DNA from: a virus
Taxonomy: Duplodnaviria > Caudoviricetes
DNA length: 64,000 nt
Reading direction: 5' to 3' (one strand)
Virus record (IMG/VR): IMGVR_UViG_3300002835_000006
Below, in pieces: positions 7,884 to 40,999 of the stretch. Position numbers and translations under genes: made by a program. The notes below the pieces were generated by a model that ran no database searches, was not told the origin of the DNA, and worked only from the letters and a program-made list of their open reading frames with translations. Positions within the stretch are counted from its first letter, which is position 1. Every line of letters starts with the position of its first letter.

Positions 7884-7898
7884 CAAAGGGGATAAAAC

Positions 7899-7938
7899 GT
7901 GCAGTGGCCTCAGGGGTTCTAGACCCCACTGCACTCCA
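7899..7938 (+). ncRNA. tRNA minihelix-like element (acceptor stem + T-arm + U73-CCA, no D or anticodon arm)
   Basis: GTGCAGT-GGCCTCA-GGGG-TTCTAGA-CCCC-ACTGCAC-T-CCA, directly abutting tRNA-Gly. Confidence 0.6.
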
Positions 7939-9051: not shown

Positions 9052-9768
9052 ATGAAAATAGAACAATCTTTACCCACAGTACTATCTCCCGAAGAAAAAA
9101 AATATCTTCGAAGTTATACAAGATACTTGAAAGCCTCAGGTATGAGTGAAGGACTTCTTGAGATTGAATTTGATGATTATGTAATTGATGATATTCATTG
9201 GGAGGAGTTCACCTCTTTTTCTAATAACTACAGAGTAGATATTACTGAAGAGTTACAACAAATCTTTGAAAAAATTTTTGATTTTATACAATCCAAAAAT
9301 CTTATTGAAGAACCTTATGAGGAATTAAATTATAGAAGACTTGAGATTGAAATAGATTGTAGAAATTCAACGATTACTATATCTGATTTTTATACCTACT
9401 ATGAAACTTCAGAAACCGAAGGTGTTTCTTACGAAGATGATGAACAACTAGACGAACTCTTTGATTCTATTTCAAAGGTTTTTGATGATAATGGCGTCAA
9501 AGATAAAGAATTCACTCTTGATTACAATGGTAGTGGTGACAGTGGTTATATAGAGGATAATTTCAGTAATAATATTCGTGTTCCAGACAAGGTCGAAGAT
9601 TGGTGTTATCGTCAGTTAGAAAATCATTTTGGAGGTTGGGAAATAAATGAAGGTTCTCAGGGTCAGTTTATCTTTGATTCCGATACAAAAACTATAGAGT
9701 TACTTCACACCGCAAATGTTGAAGAGCAAATCAATAAAACAATTTTCGAAGAAAAATTTTCTGAATAA
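9052..9768 (+). CDS. conserved hypothetical protein (C-terminal DUF6878-like domain)
   Basis: YNGSGDSGYIE ... GGWEINEGSQG motif. Confidence 0.65.
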   Translation: MKIEQSLPTVLSPEEKKYLRSYTRYLKASGMSEGLLEIEFDDYVIDDIHWEEFTSFSNNYRVDITEELQQIFEKIFDFIQSKNLIEEPYEELNYRRLEIEIDCRNSTITISDFYTYYETSETEGVSYEDDEQLDELFDSISKVFDDNGVKDKEFTLDYNGSGDSGYIEDNFSNNIRVPDKVEDWCYRQLENHFGGWEINEGSQGQFIFDSDTKTIELLHTANVEEQINKTIFEEKFSE

Positions 9769-9879: not shown

Positions 9880-9919
9880 CACTTGACACTTTCAATATTT
9901 TGAATATATTTATAACTGA

Positions 9920-10006
9920 ATGAAAACAATGAACTTCCATATAGAGTTTAGTAGTCAACAAGAGATTTGTTGGAAAACTCCTATGCGTAGTTCGGTAAAC
10001 ATGTAA
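9920..10006 (+). CDS. putative leader peptide MKTMNFHIEFSSQQEICWKTPMRSSVNM
   Basis: ATG at 9920, TAA at 10004, just after TTGACA (9883 region) and TATTTATA (9907); followed by a terminator. Confidence 0.65.
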   Translation: MKTMNFHIEFSSQQEICWKTPMRSSVNM

Positions 10007-10068
10007 ACTCCTGAAGAGTTATATATACAACCTCGGACTACGTAAGTGGTTCGGGGTTTTTTGTTTTT
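9984..10068 (+). promoter_or_regulatory. attenuator: antiterminator (9984-9995 : 10033-10044) versus terminator (10029-10041 : 10046-10058 + U-tract)
   Basis: 12-bp and 13-bp alternative helices share the segment CUCGGACUAC; TTTTGTTTTT follows the terminator stem. Confidence 0.7.
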
Positions 10069-11285: not shown

Positions 11286-11816
11286 ATGAGACGAAAAATC
11301 ATTTTTATTGATGTTGATGGACCCTTGGCTTGGGGAACGTGGGATTTAGGACCTCAAAATTTCAATATCGAATGTGCTAATTCTCGCAAATTCCAAATTC
11401 CTTATCCTTGGGTACGGGAAGATTGTGAGGCATTACAGGAAATTTGTGAGCGAACAAATGCCGATTTAGTCGTCAGTTCAGATTGGAAACAATTCTATTC
11501 TATACGACAACTTAAAGACATTTTTGTCTCATACGGTGTATATGCACCTGTAATCGACCTAACAACTCATCTAAATTTGACTAACAAAATGAGTCCTCAA
11601 CCAGAGAAAGAAAGAGCACTTCAAATTGCTCAATGGGTCAAAGTCAATAAAGTTTCAAATTGGATTGCAATTGACGATATGAATTTATCCAAAGAGTTCA
11701 AATACCTGAAACCAAGAATACCTATGTGGAGACACGTACAGGTCGATGGGGATTGGGGTCACGGTGGCAGACTAAGAGATAAAGTTGAAGAATGTATCAA
11801 AAAGTTGGAAAAATAA
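11286..11816 (+). CDS. HAD-domain protein (RNA-repair 'Swiss Army Knife' HAD-like)
   Basis: IIFIDVDGPL, LVVSSDW, WIAIDD motifs. Confidence 0.8.
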   Translation: MRRKIIFIDVDGPLAWGTWDLGPQNFNIECANSRKFQIPYPWVREDCEALQEICERTNADLVVSSDWKQFYSIRQLKDIFVSYGVYAPVIDLTTHLNLTNKMSPQPEKERALQIAQWVKVNKVSNWIAIDDMNLSKEFKYLKPRIPMWRHVQVDGDWGHGGRLRDKVEECIKKLEK

Positions 11817-12384: not shown

Positions 12385-12457
12385 GCGTGCGTAGCTCAAT
12401 TGGTAGAGTACTAGTCTCCAAAACTAGGTGTTTCAGGTTCGAGTCCTGACGTGCGTG
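12385..12457 (+). tRNA. tRNA-Trp(CCA)
   Basis: GCGTGCG/CGTGCGT acceptor, loop CTCCAAA, G73. Confidence 0.93.
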
Positions 12458-12462
12458 CACAA

Positions 12463-12588
12463 ATAGGTTGATTGGGGAAGGAATATACGTTAACCTGATG
12501 ATGGAGGTGGTATATTCGGAGTTGGAATCATCATAGTAATGCCAATCGTAAAAGGAGTTGTCCACGCGACCATCTTCTCCTTTCCTAT
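12463..12588 (+). ncRNA. unidentified pseudoknotted structured RNA between tRNA-Trp and tRNA-CAU
   Basis: Five perfect helices, two of them crossing (see findings). Confidence 0.6.
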
Positions 12589-12590
12589 AC

Positions 12591-12665
12591 GGACCCTTAG
12601 CTCAGTTGGTTAGCAGCGGCGCGCTCATAACGCGAAGGTCGTAGGTTCAAGTCCTACAGGGTCCA
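12591..12665 (+). tRNA. tRNA with CAU anticodon, probably Ile2 (lysidine-modified, reads AUA)
   Basis: GGACCCT/AGGGTCC acceptor with C4-G69 and C5-G68, loop CTCATAA; overall similar to E. coli ileX; lacks initiator features. Confidence 0.85.
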
Positions 12666-12670
12666 CAAAC

Positions 12671-17994: not shown

Positions 17995-20900
17995 TTATCT
18001 TCCGAAGATATATCTTAAACCGAGTTGACCTTGCCAAACGTCAAATACAGATGTATTCCACTGATAAGTGTCTCTGATGAGACCTACAGTAGTTGTACCA
18101 TTTGCGTTGAGGATTGGTTGAGTTGACAATCTGTAGACAGGTTCACCAGCTGTGTTAGTTGATGAATAGCTAAGGATTGCAGGGTTTGTAGCTCTTTGAG
18201 ATACACCCCAATCGTTGTTTAACATGTTACCAAAGTTCAAGATATCCAATCTGATTTGGAATGTGTTTCTGTGACCTTTGATATCGATGAAGAAATCTTG
18301 TTGAACAGACAAATCAAATCTGTGTAACATTGGAATAGCGAGAGCGTTTCTCTCAGCGTATTGACCTCTTCTTGTAGAAAGATATTTGTCTTGGTCGATG
18401 TAAGCGTCAAAAGCTGCTTGTTGTTGAGCTTCAGTGAAAGTTACACCGCCTGAAGTGAATTGAGCAAATTTGATGTCCGAACCTTTGTTTGGAACAAAGA
18501 TAAGTTCATTGTTATTCACTCTGTCACCGTTTAGGTCACCCGCTACGAAGTAGCTGAATGGGTTACCTTGTTGTCCTACATAACCTAAAGTTACAGTAGT
18601 TGCACCAGCACCTTTCTTAGCACCGTTCTCTAATCTATAACCAAGAAGACCAACAAATCTGTTAGGAATCCAGTTATCAGAGAAAGCTAAAGGAAGGTCG
18701 TTGTTTCCGTTGATTGCTCTTGCTGACTGCCAAGAACCAGAAGCAATTGAACCAGCACTCATGAAGTCTTTAGAAAGTGATGTAGTCCAAGCTGCAGAAC
18801 CCCAAAGACCTTTTTGGATTGGATATTTTAACTCGATAGTTGCTGATGTATTGTAAGCGCCATTTCTGTTTGTTAAAACCGCACCCATAGATACGTTGTC
18901 ATTTACTCTTACGCCAGCATCGTTTCTTGCGAAAACAGGTCTTTTGTCAGGACCTGCGAATACTCCTACAGGAACATCCAAGTTAGCGTTGTAGTAATGA
19001 ACAGCGTTCAAAAATCTATTGTACATAAGTTCCACAGTACCTACAAATCCGAATGGTAACTTCTTGTCTGCAGCAAGGTTAGTTTTCCATACTTGTGGGA
19101 ATTTGTAGTTGGGGTCAGTGAAAGCTAAATCAAAAGTAGAAGGAAGTGTTGGTGTAGAAGGAATGAAGTATTGGTTAGGGTTAGCTGTGAAACCGTAGTT
19201 AGCAGCTGCCGCACCTGATACATCGATAAATCCTGTAAGAACACCATTGTTTCCTACTTGGTTTGAAACGAATACATAAGGAGGTCTACCTGTGAATACA
19301 CCGGAACCACCTCTTACTTGTAAATCATTTTTACCTTTGTGATTATAGTTGAAACCAATTCTTGGTTCGAAGAGAACTTGTGTTTTTGGTAAAACACCTG
19401 TGTTGAATTTCTCACCACCAGCGAAAGTCATTGCAGTTACTGCAGGATTTTCTAATGCCGTGTTTTCGAAACCAATTACAGCCGCTCTCAAACCACCTGT
19501 GATTTTCAAATTAGCGTTGTACTGATACTCATCCTGAACATAGAGGTCAAGACGAGATGTTTTCAAAACTTGCATTGGTTCGATTCCACCAGGTAACGCT
19601 GAGTAACGAAGTTGGAATCTTGCAGGAGCAAGAGTTGAAGGTCTTCCACCGTTTGCTAATGATTGATTAGCTGCGGTGTAGAAATCAGTCAAAGAATTGA
19701 AGATATATACACCGTTTGAAGCGGGGAAGAATAAGTTGTTAGAACGATATTTCTCGAAGTTAACACCAGCCACAATTGTGTGCTTGTCCATAAATTTGGT
19801 CAAGTTGTTAGTGATGTGGAAAGTGTTATAGTCCAACTTGTTACCAGGAGTGAATGGGTCAAATCCTACAGAAGCGTAGGTTGCGGTACCATTCATGATA
19901 TCAATAGTTGGAAACATCTGTGAAAGATATCCTCTATTTTCAATCTGCTTGTCATAACCAACAATTAGGTTGTTGTGTAAGGTATTAGAAAATTTGCTGT
20001 TGAGTTCTAATACTGAAGAACGTGTGTTATCTTGAATGATGTATCCACTGTTCTTAAAACTCATTGCGTTGAACTGAGTAGTTCTGTTTCCTGCACCTGC
20101 AGATTGAGAGTTTGAAATGTTTATCTCAGCTTCTGAATTGTGCCAAACATAACGAGCAGTCAATTTGTGCTTGTCGTTGATGTTCCAGTCCATTCTCACC
20201 AAGAATTTCTCAGAAGTGTTTGAGTTGTTGTACCCTTCCCAAGGACCCGTCTCATAATTGAAATTTGTTCTCATGAAATCAGAAAGAGTTTTCATATCTG
20301 AATACAGAACTCTTGAGATTTGAGAACCAGCTAAAGGTGAACCTTGTGAAATCCAAGTCGTACCAGGTTCAGTTTTTGTAAGGTTTTCGTAGTTACCAAA
20401 AATGAATAATTTGTTTTTGATAATTGGAGCACCTAATCTGAAACCTCTTGTAGTTTCTTCGAATTTCGAAGCGGTTACAGTAGTTCCTTTAGCGTTGTTA
20501 CCAACATAACGTTGGTTGTCTCTGTTAAACTGATAATAAGAACCCTCTACTTTGTTGGAACCACTTCTTGTAACAGCGTTGATTCCAGCACCAACGAAAC
20601 CACTTTGACGAATGTCAAATGGAGCTACGTTGATTTGTAGTTGGTCAATCGCATCCAAAGAGATTGCAGTTGAACCAGTTCTACCACCAGCCTGAGCTGA
20701 AGAACCAAGACCGAAACCGTTGTTAAACTGAGAACCGTCAATTGTGAAGTTGTTCAATCTGCTATCAGCAGCTCCGAAAGAACGACCGTCACCCATTGGG
20801 TTGTACTTGGTGATTCCGTCAATAGTTCTTGCACCAGTAATGGGAACAGAAGTTAGTTCTCTCCTTCCAAATTGCTGAGACGCACCGGTTCTACCTGAGC

Positions 20901-21282
20901 TGAAAATGTTGTTTTTGTTTGAATTTACAACTACTTCAGTAAGGGTTTTAACTTCATTGACCAACACAATTTCCAAGGTAGTTGAAATACCAAGATTTGT
21001 ATTGATGTCTGTAAGCTCCTTCATTTTGTAACCCACATTAGAAACGTGAATTACATAAGGACCACCAGGACGCACAGCAGGAATGTTGAAAATACCAACT
21101 TTGTTTGTGATTGCACGATACTCAGAACCCGTAGGTTGGTGAACAGCATGAACCGACGCTCCCGCTAAAGCATCTCCTTTTTCATTTTTCACTACACCAG
21201 ACAGGGCAGAAGTTGTAATTTGCCCGAAAGATGCGAGAGTCACGAACAAGGATAAAAGTGACATCATGATTTGCTTTTTCAT
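17995..21282 (-). CDS. TonB-dependent outer-membrane receptor (Oar-like, N-terminal carboxypeptidase-regulatory-like domain)
   Basis: Signal peptide; GVVKNEKG..L.GA.V; plug motif GFVGAGINAVTRSGSN; EPRIGFNY; C-terminal GQLGLRYIF. Start MKKQ at 21282. Confidence 0.93.
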   Translation of the reverse strand: MKKQIMMSLLSLFVTLASFGQITTSALSGVVKNEKGDALAGASVHAVHQPTGSEYRAITNKVGIFNIPAVRPGGPYVIHVSNVGYKMKELTDINTNLGISTTLEIVLVNEVKTLTEVVVNSNKNNIFSSGRTGASQQFGRRELTSVPITGARTIDGITKYNPMGDGRSFGAADSRLNNFTIDGSQFNNGFGLGSSAQAGGRTGSTAISLDAIDQLQINVAPFDIRQSGFVGAGINAVTRSGSNKVEGSYYQFNRDNQRYVGNNAKGTTVTASKFEETTRGFRLGAPIIKNKLFIFGNYENLTKTEPGTTWISQGSPLAGSQISRVLYSDMKTLSDFMRTNFNYETGPWEGYNNSNTSEKFLVRMDWNINDKHKLTARYVWHNSEAEINISNSQSAGAGNRTTQFNAMSFKNSGYIIQDNTRSSVLELNSKFSNTLHNNLIVGYDKQIENRGYLSQMFPTIDIMNGTATYASVGFDPFTPGNKLDYNTFHITNNLTKFMDKHTIVAGVNFEKYRSNNLFFPASNGVYIFNSLTDFYTAANQSLANGGRPSTLAPARFQLRYSALPGGIEPMQVLKTSRLDLYVQDEYQYNANLKITGGLRAAVIGFENTALENPAVTAMTFAGGEKFNTGVLPKTQVLFEPRIGFNYNHKGKNDLQVRGGSGVFTGRPPYVFVSNQVGNNGVLTGFIDVSGAAAANYGFTANPNQYFIPSTPTLPSTFDLAFTDPNYKFPQVWKTNLAADKKLPFGFVGTVELMYNRFLNAVHYYNANLDVPVGVFAGPDKRPVFARNDAGVRVNDNVSMGAVLTNRNGAYNTSATIELKYPIQKGLWGSAAWTTSLSKDFMSAGSIASGSWQSARAINGNNDLPLAFSDNWIPNRFVGLLGYRLENGAKKGAGATTVTLGYVGQQGNPFSYFVAGDLNGDRVNNNELIFVPNKGSDIKFAQFTSGGVTFTEAQQQAAFDAYIDQDKYLSTRRGQYAERNALAIPMLHRFDLSVQQDFFIDIKGHRNTFQIRLDILNFGNMLNNDWGVSQRATNPAILSYSSTNTAGEPVYRLSTQPILNANGTTTVGLIRDTYQWNTSVFDVWQGQLGLRYIFGR

Positions 21283-21519
21283 GTTTGTTTTGTTTATTGG
21301 TTTATAAATAAAAAATCCCGAAGACATGCGCCAACGGGATTATTGTATTTTCAAAATTGTTAAAATAGTTCAGTCGATAAAAACTCATAAAATTTCTCCA
21401 CCCTTTCATAACTACCCTGTCGAAAACAAAAATCCCAATCGACAACACAAAGTTAATAATTTTTTAATTGAGAATCAATAGGCGAAAAAAAACCCCCGAT
21501 TTCTCGGGGGGTCTCTTGG

Positions 21520-23296: not shown

Positions 23297-23688
23297 GGTG
23301 GAGAAGACGGGAGTCGAACCCGTGTCTTGTTCGCGATAACTATAAGTGACTACACGTTTATTACAACATTGTTTCTCAATGTTCCGAAATATTAGGTTTG
23401 ATATATGTGAGAAACCTACCTACAAACAACTTGGTCTCAGAATTATTTTAAACGAGCTCTGACCTGTGACCCGTATAATGGACTTCTGTTCCTAGGTTAT
23501 ATGTCCTAACCGACCCGACGTTGTCAAAACTATCAAGCTTTAACAACAGCTTCCTCAGCGATAAGACCGAGAGCAGCCATTTTAGCAAAAGTATTGCCAG
23601 TTGTGTTTTAAATCAGTTTTTAAGGAGGTAATTTAGCTCCTACGTGCCACCTATACCTATACACGCCAATCGATGCCATTTCTTCCCC
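23297..23688 (-). ncRNA. ssrA: tmRNA
   Basis: 5' GGGGAAG pairs with 3' CTTCTCC-A-CC, giving G3-U70; T-arm CGGG-TTCGACT-CCCG; tag ORF 23598-23533 after ACAACT. Confidence 0.95.
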
Positions 23689-40117: not shown

Positions 40118-40816
40118 ATGACATTCGGACAGATAAAAACCGCCATAGAAAACCACTTGATTGAATCTTACAAAAGTGAAAAAGAATTCAAGAAAAGTAT
40201 CAATGAATTTAAGTCTAATATATTGAATAATAAATCAATATCCAAACTTTATTCTGTCTATGACCAGTTATCTACAAATCAAGGTTTGAACGAAGGTGAT
40301 GCTAAAGATTTTTTAGAAGAAGGATTATCTGTAATCAATAGAATTTTACCAACAGTAAAATTACCCAAACTTGCTAAAGAGACTACTAATAATAATTACA
40401 AAAATATTGACACACTAGTTTACACAAATAATTTAAATTTATCTGAACGCGTAAACGCTAAAAAGGAAATCATTCAAATTTTGAAATCTGAGAAAGAAAG
40501 TCTGAAGGAATCTATAAAGTTACCTGTTTCTAGTATGGTTAAAATTGCCAATCAGACATTAGAGAATTACATCACAAATATGGATGAAGATTCTAAAAAA
40601 GTTTTCATGAATGTGGTAAAAACAGATAGTAAAAACTTGAAGGAAGATTATCAAAACTTGAAAGAATCTACAATAGATAAATTAAAAACAATCCTCACAA
40701 ACGAATCAGAACAGGAATTAAAATCTAAAATACAAGAGACTATAGAGAAAATTCAAACTCAGGATTTTAATCAGATGAACTATGTAAAATTAGTGAGTTT
40801 GGAAAAAAACCTATAG
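40118..40816 (+). CDS. hypothetical late protein
   Basis: 232-aa ORF after TATTTAT. Confidence 0.75.
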   Translation: MTFGQIKTAIENHLIESYKSEKEFKKSINEFKSNILNNKSISKLYSVYDQLSTNQGLNEGDAKDFLEEGLSVINRILPTVKLPKLAKETTNNNYKNIDTLVYTNNLNLSERVNAKKEIIQILKSEKESLKESIKLPVSSMVKIANQTLENYITNMDEDSKKVFMNVVKTDSKNLKEDYQNLKESTIDKLKTILTNESEQELKSKIQETIEKIQTQDFNQMNYVKLVSLEKNL

Positions 40817-40999
40817 GTTCGTTTTCTTTCTTTGAGTATATTTTGCTTTTAGTAATGCTTTTCTTTTAGTAACAGACTTCTTTTCAAATTCTTTCTTTTC
40901 CAATAACTTTTGATTTTGTTTTGTCTTTATTACCTTAGATTTCAAAACTTTCAAAGCCTTCTCTAAATTTTCCGATTTGGTTATTTCGATAATCAACAT
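40811..40999 (-). CDS. rpsU: phage-encoded ribosomal protein bS21
   Basis: MLII.....ENLEKALK.LK.K...T.....L.....F.K.SV.KR...KAKY.Q matches the Bacteroidota bS21 pattern; position between portal and protease matches described bS21 phages. Confidence 0.88.
   Translation of the reverse strand: MLIIEITKSENLEKALKVLKSKVIKTKQNQKLLEKKEFEKKSVTKRKALLKAKYTQRKKTNL

Follow-up and report, generated by a model that had tools for sequence, protein, structure and literature searches.

A double-pseudoknotted non-coding RNA family in phage tRNA clusters, supported by covariation among homologs

Results

We analysed a 64,000-nucleotide stretch of phage DNA (Caudoviricetes; IMG/VR record IMGVR_UViG_3300002835_000006), referred to over its whole length as the window, in which a structured RNA that is not a tRNA occupies the intergenic gap between tRNA-Trp and a tRNA with a CAU anticodon and is co-oriented with both (Table 1). 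Comparative sequence analysis indicates that it represents a real, uncatalogued, double-pseudoknotted family of phage non-coding RNA (ncRNA), with a new fold among the known stable RNAs of tRNA clusters. An initial annotation of the locus had already placed such an element in this gap with five stems, P1 to P5, and both proposals hold: the gap-filling, structured, co-oriented and non-tRNA character is conserved in homologs, and each of the five stems is perfectly Watson-Crick complementary and covaries strongly. Their detail needed revision, as the conserved part of P1 is limited to 3 bp with its outer two pairs weakly kept, P2 and P5 both extend to 7 bp, and two helices, P3b and a second pseudoknot (PK2), had been missed. 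The RNA is assigned to the + strand because U-G/U-A and G-C/G-U interchanges pair on that strand only. Taken alone, the window sequence gives a modest signal: its total pairs in stems of at least 5 bp are matched by 98 of 5000 dinucleotide shuffles (2%), and those in stems of at least 6 bp by 6 of 5000 (0.12%). The nested minimum free energy is not unusual (z 0.19), and the corresponding fold, considered as a guide to structure, was discarded as uninformative and wrong. It is the covariation of the helices among homologs that settles the reality of the element.

Table 1. Window coordinates of the RNA, its structural parts and its surroundings
Feature	Positions	Strand	Remarks
ncRNA	12465-12586	+	Conserved bounds; 12463-12588 including two extra pairs of the window's phage
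P1, 5' strand	12465-12467	+	Partner strand 12584-12586; terminal closing helix, directly adjoining P5
P2, 5' strand	12469-12475	+	Pairs with 12542-12548; invariant U12468 just before
GGAA strand	12476-12479	+	Opposite AGUA 12535-12538
P3 with inner stem P3b	12481-12517	+	P3 12481-12488/12510-12517; P3b 12493-12495/12506-12508; replaceable domain
P4, first pseudoknot	12496-12533	+	12496-12502/12527-12533
PK2, 5' strand GUUG	12521-12524	+	Pairs with CGAC 12567-12570
Bulge AGNAANG	12535-12541	+	A, G, A, A and G each at least 97% conserved
UA junction, P2 to P5	12549-12550	+	Invariant
P5	12551-12583	+	12551-12557/12577-12583; strongest covariation
P5 loop	12558-12576	+	Conserved: GUCCAC, PK2 3' strand 12567-12570, CAUCUU
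Upstream tRNA-Trp(CCA)	12385-12458	+	
Downstream CAU tRNA	12591-12666	+	ARAGORN label Met
Probable promoter, leader open reading frame and terminator heading the tRNA operon	9883-10058	+	9883-9910; 28-codon frame 9920-10006; 10029-10058

Members of the family were gathered from IMG/VR and JGI metagenomes by scanning for neighbour proteins and for DNA patterns, an approach that returned at least 188; all counts out of 188 refer to these distinct collected members, which measure 73-159 nt. Covariance model scores drop from 83 bits straight to 24 bits, with no score in the interval. The homolog and covariation analysis, for which the initial annotation had called, came out in its favour. The core is a 73-nt three-way junction composed of P1 (3 bp), U, P2 (7 bp), UA and P5 (7 bp), in whose helices 98.1% of cells are paired and 11 of 20 pairs show double changes, a result that none of 500 shuffles equals. 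Slid-register controls fall far below the pairing of the true core helices, and the mutual information ranking is headed by true core pairs. Conservation reaches at least 97% at 36 of 63 core positions, about half of them unpaired, figures that are partly biased by the pattern-based collection, although four overlapping patterns released each segment in turn. The near-invariant unpaired residues include U12468, AGNAANG, UA, GUCCAC and CAUCUU. Furthermore, the GGAA strand and the AGUA opposite it are compatible with a loop-E/bulged-G motif in 140 of the 188, and we infer that the two strands form such a motif.

PK2 is a long-range pseudoknot that ties the P2 and P5 arms together. With its 5' strand anchored blind to the loop, the first position is G-C in all 188 members, the second U-A in 104 and G-C in 75, the third U-A or U-G in 154 and the fourth G-C or U-G in 134, and the number of paired cells is 468 against a maximum of 439 across 2000 within-class shuffles. 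On a tree built with the PK2 columns masked, 12524 changes 11 times, 12567 12 times and the two taken jointly only 14 times, corresponding to about 10 simultaneous compensatory changes, whereas unrelated columns on the same tree give joint counts of 25 of 26 and 34 of 38; a second, tool-made count of joint changes agrees with that from the tree. The helix comprises 4 bp in the window's class and 3 bp in the minimal class, with a weaker 2-4 bp version in the two-hairpin class. An alternative loop register, UCCACUC with GAGGGGA, is unsupported by covariation and was rejected: about half of the members carry G at 12566, yet the A proposed to pair with it does not vary. The PK2 register is preferred over it because 12524 and 12567 change together.

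The H-type pseudoknot formed by P3 and P4, which the initial annotation had reported, is likewise real and covarying (88% paired, double changes at 12 of 15 pairs, with 72 different sequence pairs for P3 and 43 for P4 among the 105 members of its class), but it is not the hallmark of the family, being absent in 83 of the 188. The insert in the P2 arm instead falls into three classes: the H-type pseudoknot in 105 members, two hairpins in 38, and a single hairpin reduced down to a 10-nt loop in 45. P3/P4 is a peripheral, replaceable module. In two loci (L336 near 9709-9760, -; L441 near 2385-2445, +) nearly the whole P2 arm is deleted with the P5 domain left, a form probably derived from the L466 type. 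Downstream of the RNA in L067 (L067:12185, +) and L247 there is a separate, free-standing motif, CAGCAGGG...GCUGA, which in L319:5853-6010 and L313:4901-5059 (+) is inserted in the variable arm of the RNA; this twofold placement suggests module exchange between array RNAs.

With respect to genomic context, a tRNA lies within 15 nt in 132 of 188 members and within 500 nt in 159; the end of an upstream tRNA falls within 15 nt of the RNA start, mostly at 2-5 nt, in 91 members and not in the remainder. The spacing from the RNA to the next tRNA, 4-7 nt, is that found between tRNAs in the same arrays (mostly 4-6 nt), and the family shares encoding in a tRNA cluster, on the same strand and with tRNA-like spacing, with the loose class of stable non-tRNA RNAs of phage tRNA clusters. 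At least 12 tRNA types are found upstream and at least 10 downstream, Trp and Tyr being the commonest, and no neighbouring protein is constant, the best family reaching 43 of 182 loci. The RNA is cleanly absent as a unit in a close relative (L003), persists as a truncated remnant in another (L010), occurs as tandem pairs of two different structural classes at 7 loci and is directly preceded by a promoter-like TATATTT motif in 9 of the 188. About 15 members lie 14-23 nt ahead of an open reading frame (ORF), mostly of one 91-97 aa family, and no mobility gene or target duplication adjoins the RNA at the loci examined. Given its varying neighbours, clean absence, tandem pairs, promoter-proximal copies and lack of a fixed protein, the RNA behaves as a gene.

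The window genome encodes a T4-like major capsid protein, portal and terminase, the ribosomal protein bS21 (40811-40999, -), 15 tRNAs and a tmRNA at 23297-23688, and a gene at 17995-21327 (-) specifies a SusC/TonB-receptor-like outer-membrane barrel protein of a type typical of Bacteroidetes. By gene content it matches the ~300-kb freshwater bS21 phages that are predicted to infect Bacteroidetes, in whose description non-coding RNAs are unmentioned (PMC9723584). Its close relatives are contigs of 317-321 kb; bS21 was found in 11 of 17 carrier contigs searched, the RNA is present in one copy per contig in 16 large carrier contigs, and capsid protein identity among carriers ranges from 92% down to ~40%, with two carriers lacking a detectable match. 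In GTDB, three pattern matches were obtained; each lies on a contig of 0.6-2.8 kb from a Bacteroidota metagenome-assembled genome and is probably binned phage DNA. As these contigs are tiny, and a model search of 150 other Bacteroidota genomes returned no member, the family appears to be phage-borne. No cultured carrier was found, since blastn against 50,697 GenBank phages, queried with either the window or one minimal member, gave tRNA matches or short chance matches only. The initial annotation had been unable to assign the RNA to a family, and 12463-12588 indeed has no match in Rfam 15, either at gathering thresholds or at E<10; minimal members (73-75 nt) return chance matches on the opposite strand only, and no ribozyme at E<10. 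Literature searches yielded no description of the RNA, and five signature strings occur in no paper text. Fremin et al. 2023 (PMC10690425) list 8,495 anonymous candidate RNAs from IMG/VR, and the family could be one of them.

At the head of the window's tRNA operon, the codons of the leader (Phe, His, Ile-AUA, Glu, Ser, Gln, Ile, Cys, Trp) correspond to the tRNAs encoded downstream, and leader and terminator together are likely a tRNA-sensing attenuator; no strong promoter follows the probable one at 9883-9910 until 13162. Control of the RNA by the same attenuator as the tRNAs, proposed in the initial annotation, is plausible for the window genome but is not a family trait, because genomic context varies. 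The C4-G69 and C5-G68 pairs of the CAU tRNA, along with an ATA codon in the leader, make its identity as tRNA-Ile2 plausible. The acceptor stem of tRNA-Trp (12385-12457, +) contains three G-U pairs, including 1-72, that are retained in relatives. Within the operon, 11286-11816 (+) encodes a HAD domain that belongs to the 'Swiss Army Knife' RNA-repair type and is present at 16 of 182 carrier loci. Elsewhere in the window, a strong hairpin, GUGCAGUGG...CCACUGCAC, occupies the tRNA-Asn/tRNA-Gly gap at 7897-7935 (+).

The tRNA arrays of relatives hold other structured units. A second stem-closed, ~73-nt non-tRNA unit, CUUCAG...CUGAAG (L001:4059-4131, +; also L002, L010:3649 and L020), lies directly upstream of the RNA in some relatives, has internal stems that apparently covary and has no Rfam match at gathering. 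TRNA-sized stem-closed units are also found between tRNAs at L001:4506-4580 (GACAGAC...GUCUGUC) and L001:4369-4425 (AUGAUUG...CAAUCAU), both on the + strand; they recur in L003, L004-L008 and L040 and are not in Rfam. A ~70-nt unit with three short hairpins follows tRNA-Lys in L009:3725-3797 and L012:3705-3775 (+), with compensatory variation between the two, and L018:3690-3870 (+) is a GC-richer non-coding stretch whose start, GAGAGGAAACUCAGG, recalls conserved region I of RNase P RNA, again with no Rfam match at gathering. Finally, contigs from four metatranscriptomes span the element and an upstream ORF; they derive from relatives, their strand, ends and level are not readable, and they are not used as evidence here. 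In one such contig (X8), 12587 is joined back to 12462 via three letters, a junction that could stem either from a tandem pair in a relative or from a circular RNA; as tandem copies of the gene do occur in DNA, it is no proof of a circle.

Discussion

The best explanation that we can offer, one that we regard as about evenly poised between right and wrong, is a stable RNA, encoded as a stand-alone gene by large freshwater Bacteroidetes-type phages, that would be freed by tRNA processing and would bind a conserved host factor of translation or defence. Its fold is a three-way junction with the P2 and P5 arms tied by PK2 and a variable module plugged into the P2 arm. Judging from its context, the RNA would be part of the tRNA operon transcript, and processing of the flanking tRNAs would liberate it passively, with RNase P cutting at the 5' end of the next tRNA and subsequent trimming up to the terminal stem; release of units from tRNA transcripts by tRNA-processing nucleases is an established pathway. 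By gathering the invariant unpaired residues, the pseudoknot may create a single surface to which a conserved host macromolecule would bind. The likeliest partner is one that acts on tRNA or the ribosome, such as a translation factor or an anti-phage tRNase that the RNA would occupy in the manner of a decoy. In this way the RNA would support phage translation like the co-expressed tRNAs. We favour this explanation because the core and both pseudoknots covary, the unpaired bases are conserved, the spacing is tRNA-like, the RNA behaves as a gene and T4 and T5 provide precedent. Several points weigh against it: the link to translation or defence comes from operon context, the conservation figures carry the collection bias described above, and a 73-nt junction and pseudoknot with invariant unpaired bases would also fit a ribozyme or a small-molecule aptamer.

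Of the competing explanations, catalysis is the strongest, and we hold it to be a possible, if rather doubtful, alternative that the core represents a new structural class of catalytic RNA, with self-cleaving or RNA-processing activity and exchangeable peripheral domains, which large lake phages would employ within their tRNA operons; the same tentative standing applies to its narrower form, a new small self-cleaving class that would help to cut the tRNA/ncRNA polycistronic transcript. Known ribozymes also exchange peripheral domains as freely as this family does. The minimal size of 73-75 nt, the multi-stem junction, the pseudoknot and the many invariant unpaired residues are the kind of features used as criteria for choosing ribozyme candidates, although ten motifs picked in that manner did not cleave (PMC10085705). 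In 91 members the RNA starts close behind a tRNA end, and a precedent exists in the theta (hepatitis delta virus (HDV)-like) ribozymes of gut phages, which trim tRNA 3' trailers and whose catalytic C is the first base of J4/2 (PMC10879173). Like them the RNA is compact and double-pseudoknotted, in about half of the members directly after a phage tRNA, with a UCCAC loop recalling the HDV-like L3; unlike them it is a three-way junction with paired ends. An approximate HDV-like descriptor (P1, P2, P3, an L3 of 7-8 nt, P1 starting at G) finds the P1+P3+L3 arrangement in 0 of 188 members, a 3-bp P3 around the UCCAC loop is feasible in 32 of 188 only, and the covariation-supported fold offers no equivalent of P4 or of J4/2 with its catalytic C. 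The hammerhead fares no better, since the bases of CUGANGA (18 of 188 members only, 7 with GAAA; CUGAUGA at 12495-12501 in the window) form the covarying P4. Cleavage is further disfavoured by the lack of a tRNA directly upstream in about half of the members, by flanks that are not conserved, by the 9 members right behind a promoter-like motif, which would have nothing to cut off, and by L003, where the same tRNA pair is processed without the RNA.

The other explanations fall well behind. A free-standing aptamer sponging a small molecule, such as an immune signalling nucleotide or an alarmone, seems unlikely: its arms locked by loop-loop pairing give it a purine-type architecture and the invariant unpaired residues cluster in two loops, but these are distal loops rather than the junction, no Rfam riboswitch matches, and we know of no natural RNA sponge of the small-molecule aptamer type. 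We see slight prospects for mimicry of tRNA or tmRNA shape, with aminoacylation or entry into the ribosome; the minimal members have the size of a tRNA, and P1 is stacked directly on P5 as an acceptor stem is on a T stem, yet P1 has only 3 bp, a T-arm consensus and a CCA after P1 occur in 1 of 188 members each, ARAGORN and Rfam (RF00005) make no call, the 73-nt members are too short for a tag ORF, and a separate, normal tmRNA (23297-23688) is present. A mimic of either kind and a theta-type ribozyme, all put forward in the initial annotation, failed their defining sequence tests. A similarly small chance attaches to a mobile, selfish or near-neutral passenger of tRNA arrays, of no benefit to the phage, for which patchy presence, shifting position, tandem copies, the L010 remnant and the L336/L441 internal deletion would speak; against this stand the usual single copy per genome, the lack of a mobility gene or target duplication alongside and the strictness with which unpaired bases are kept in distant phages. 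Least probable of all is a cis-acting riboswitch or attenuator of downstream genes, suggested by the ~15 members just ahead of an ORF, as mostly tRNAs or stem-closed units lie downstream, with no terminator, expression platform or constant downstream gene.

Comparison with known RNAs

Both the Alu domain of the signal recognition particle (SRP) and the purine riboswitch aptamer are built as a three-way junction in which loop-loop pairing connects two arms, and the RNA resembles them through PK2 and in architecture only. It differs from the former in that UGUA occurs at the junction in 10 of 188 members only, with no S domain and no match to SRP models, and from the latter in having no Rfam match and no expression platform. 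Like bacterial Y RNAs (YrlA), it is tRNA-sized and often encoded among tRNAs; a Y RNA was nevertheless rejected, as a Ro60/TROVE gene is found in 0 of 17 carrier contigs (8 near-complete; the control query was positive in 2 genomes), the Ro60-binding GUCCGA occurs in 2 of 188 members, a T-arm is lacking and the would-be pairing bases lie in the covarying P2. Likenesses seen by eye to loop B of the hairpin ribozyme, 16S h42/h43, the anti-Shine-Dalgarno tail and T5 RNA III were dismissed, since the bases concerned are variable or engaged in other pairs. GOLLD and ROOL are also pseudoknotted phage ncRNAs of unknown function near tRNAs (PMC12286853), but are several times larger and form Rfam families without a match here.

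In context, the closest parallels are the 100-170 nt stable non-tRNA RNAs of the T4 and T5 tRNA clusters, T4 species 1 and 2 (rnaC, rnaD) and T5 RNA I, III, IV, 1, 2, 2H and 3, of which T4 RNA C has been detected on a Northern blot (PMC9697503). In sequence and structure the family does not match these RNAs: the family model (R1), run with filters off against both clusters, scores at most 12 bits, with no hit on annotated RNA C or D, several of the T4 and T5 RNAs end in a T-arm or CCA where the present RNA has neither, and T5 RNA III carries a hairpin superficially like P2 while lacking the rest of the fold. That phage tRNA clusters encode stable RNAs other than tRNAs was already evident from T4 and T5, yet no function has been found for them, and the present family is unusually testable, with a bounded fold, 188 natural variants, a 73-nt minimal form, covariation-defined pairs and few invariant bases. 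Whether ribozyme or binding RNA, it would provide both a new RNA fold and a handle on the way in which abundant giant phages of fresh water gain control of Bacteroidetes translation.
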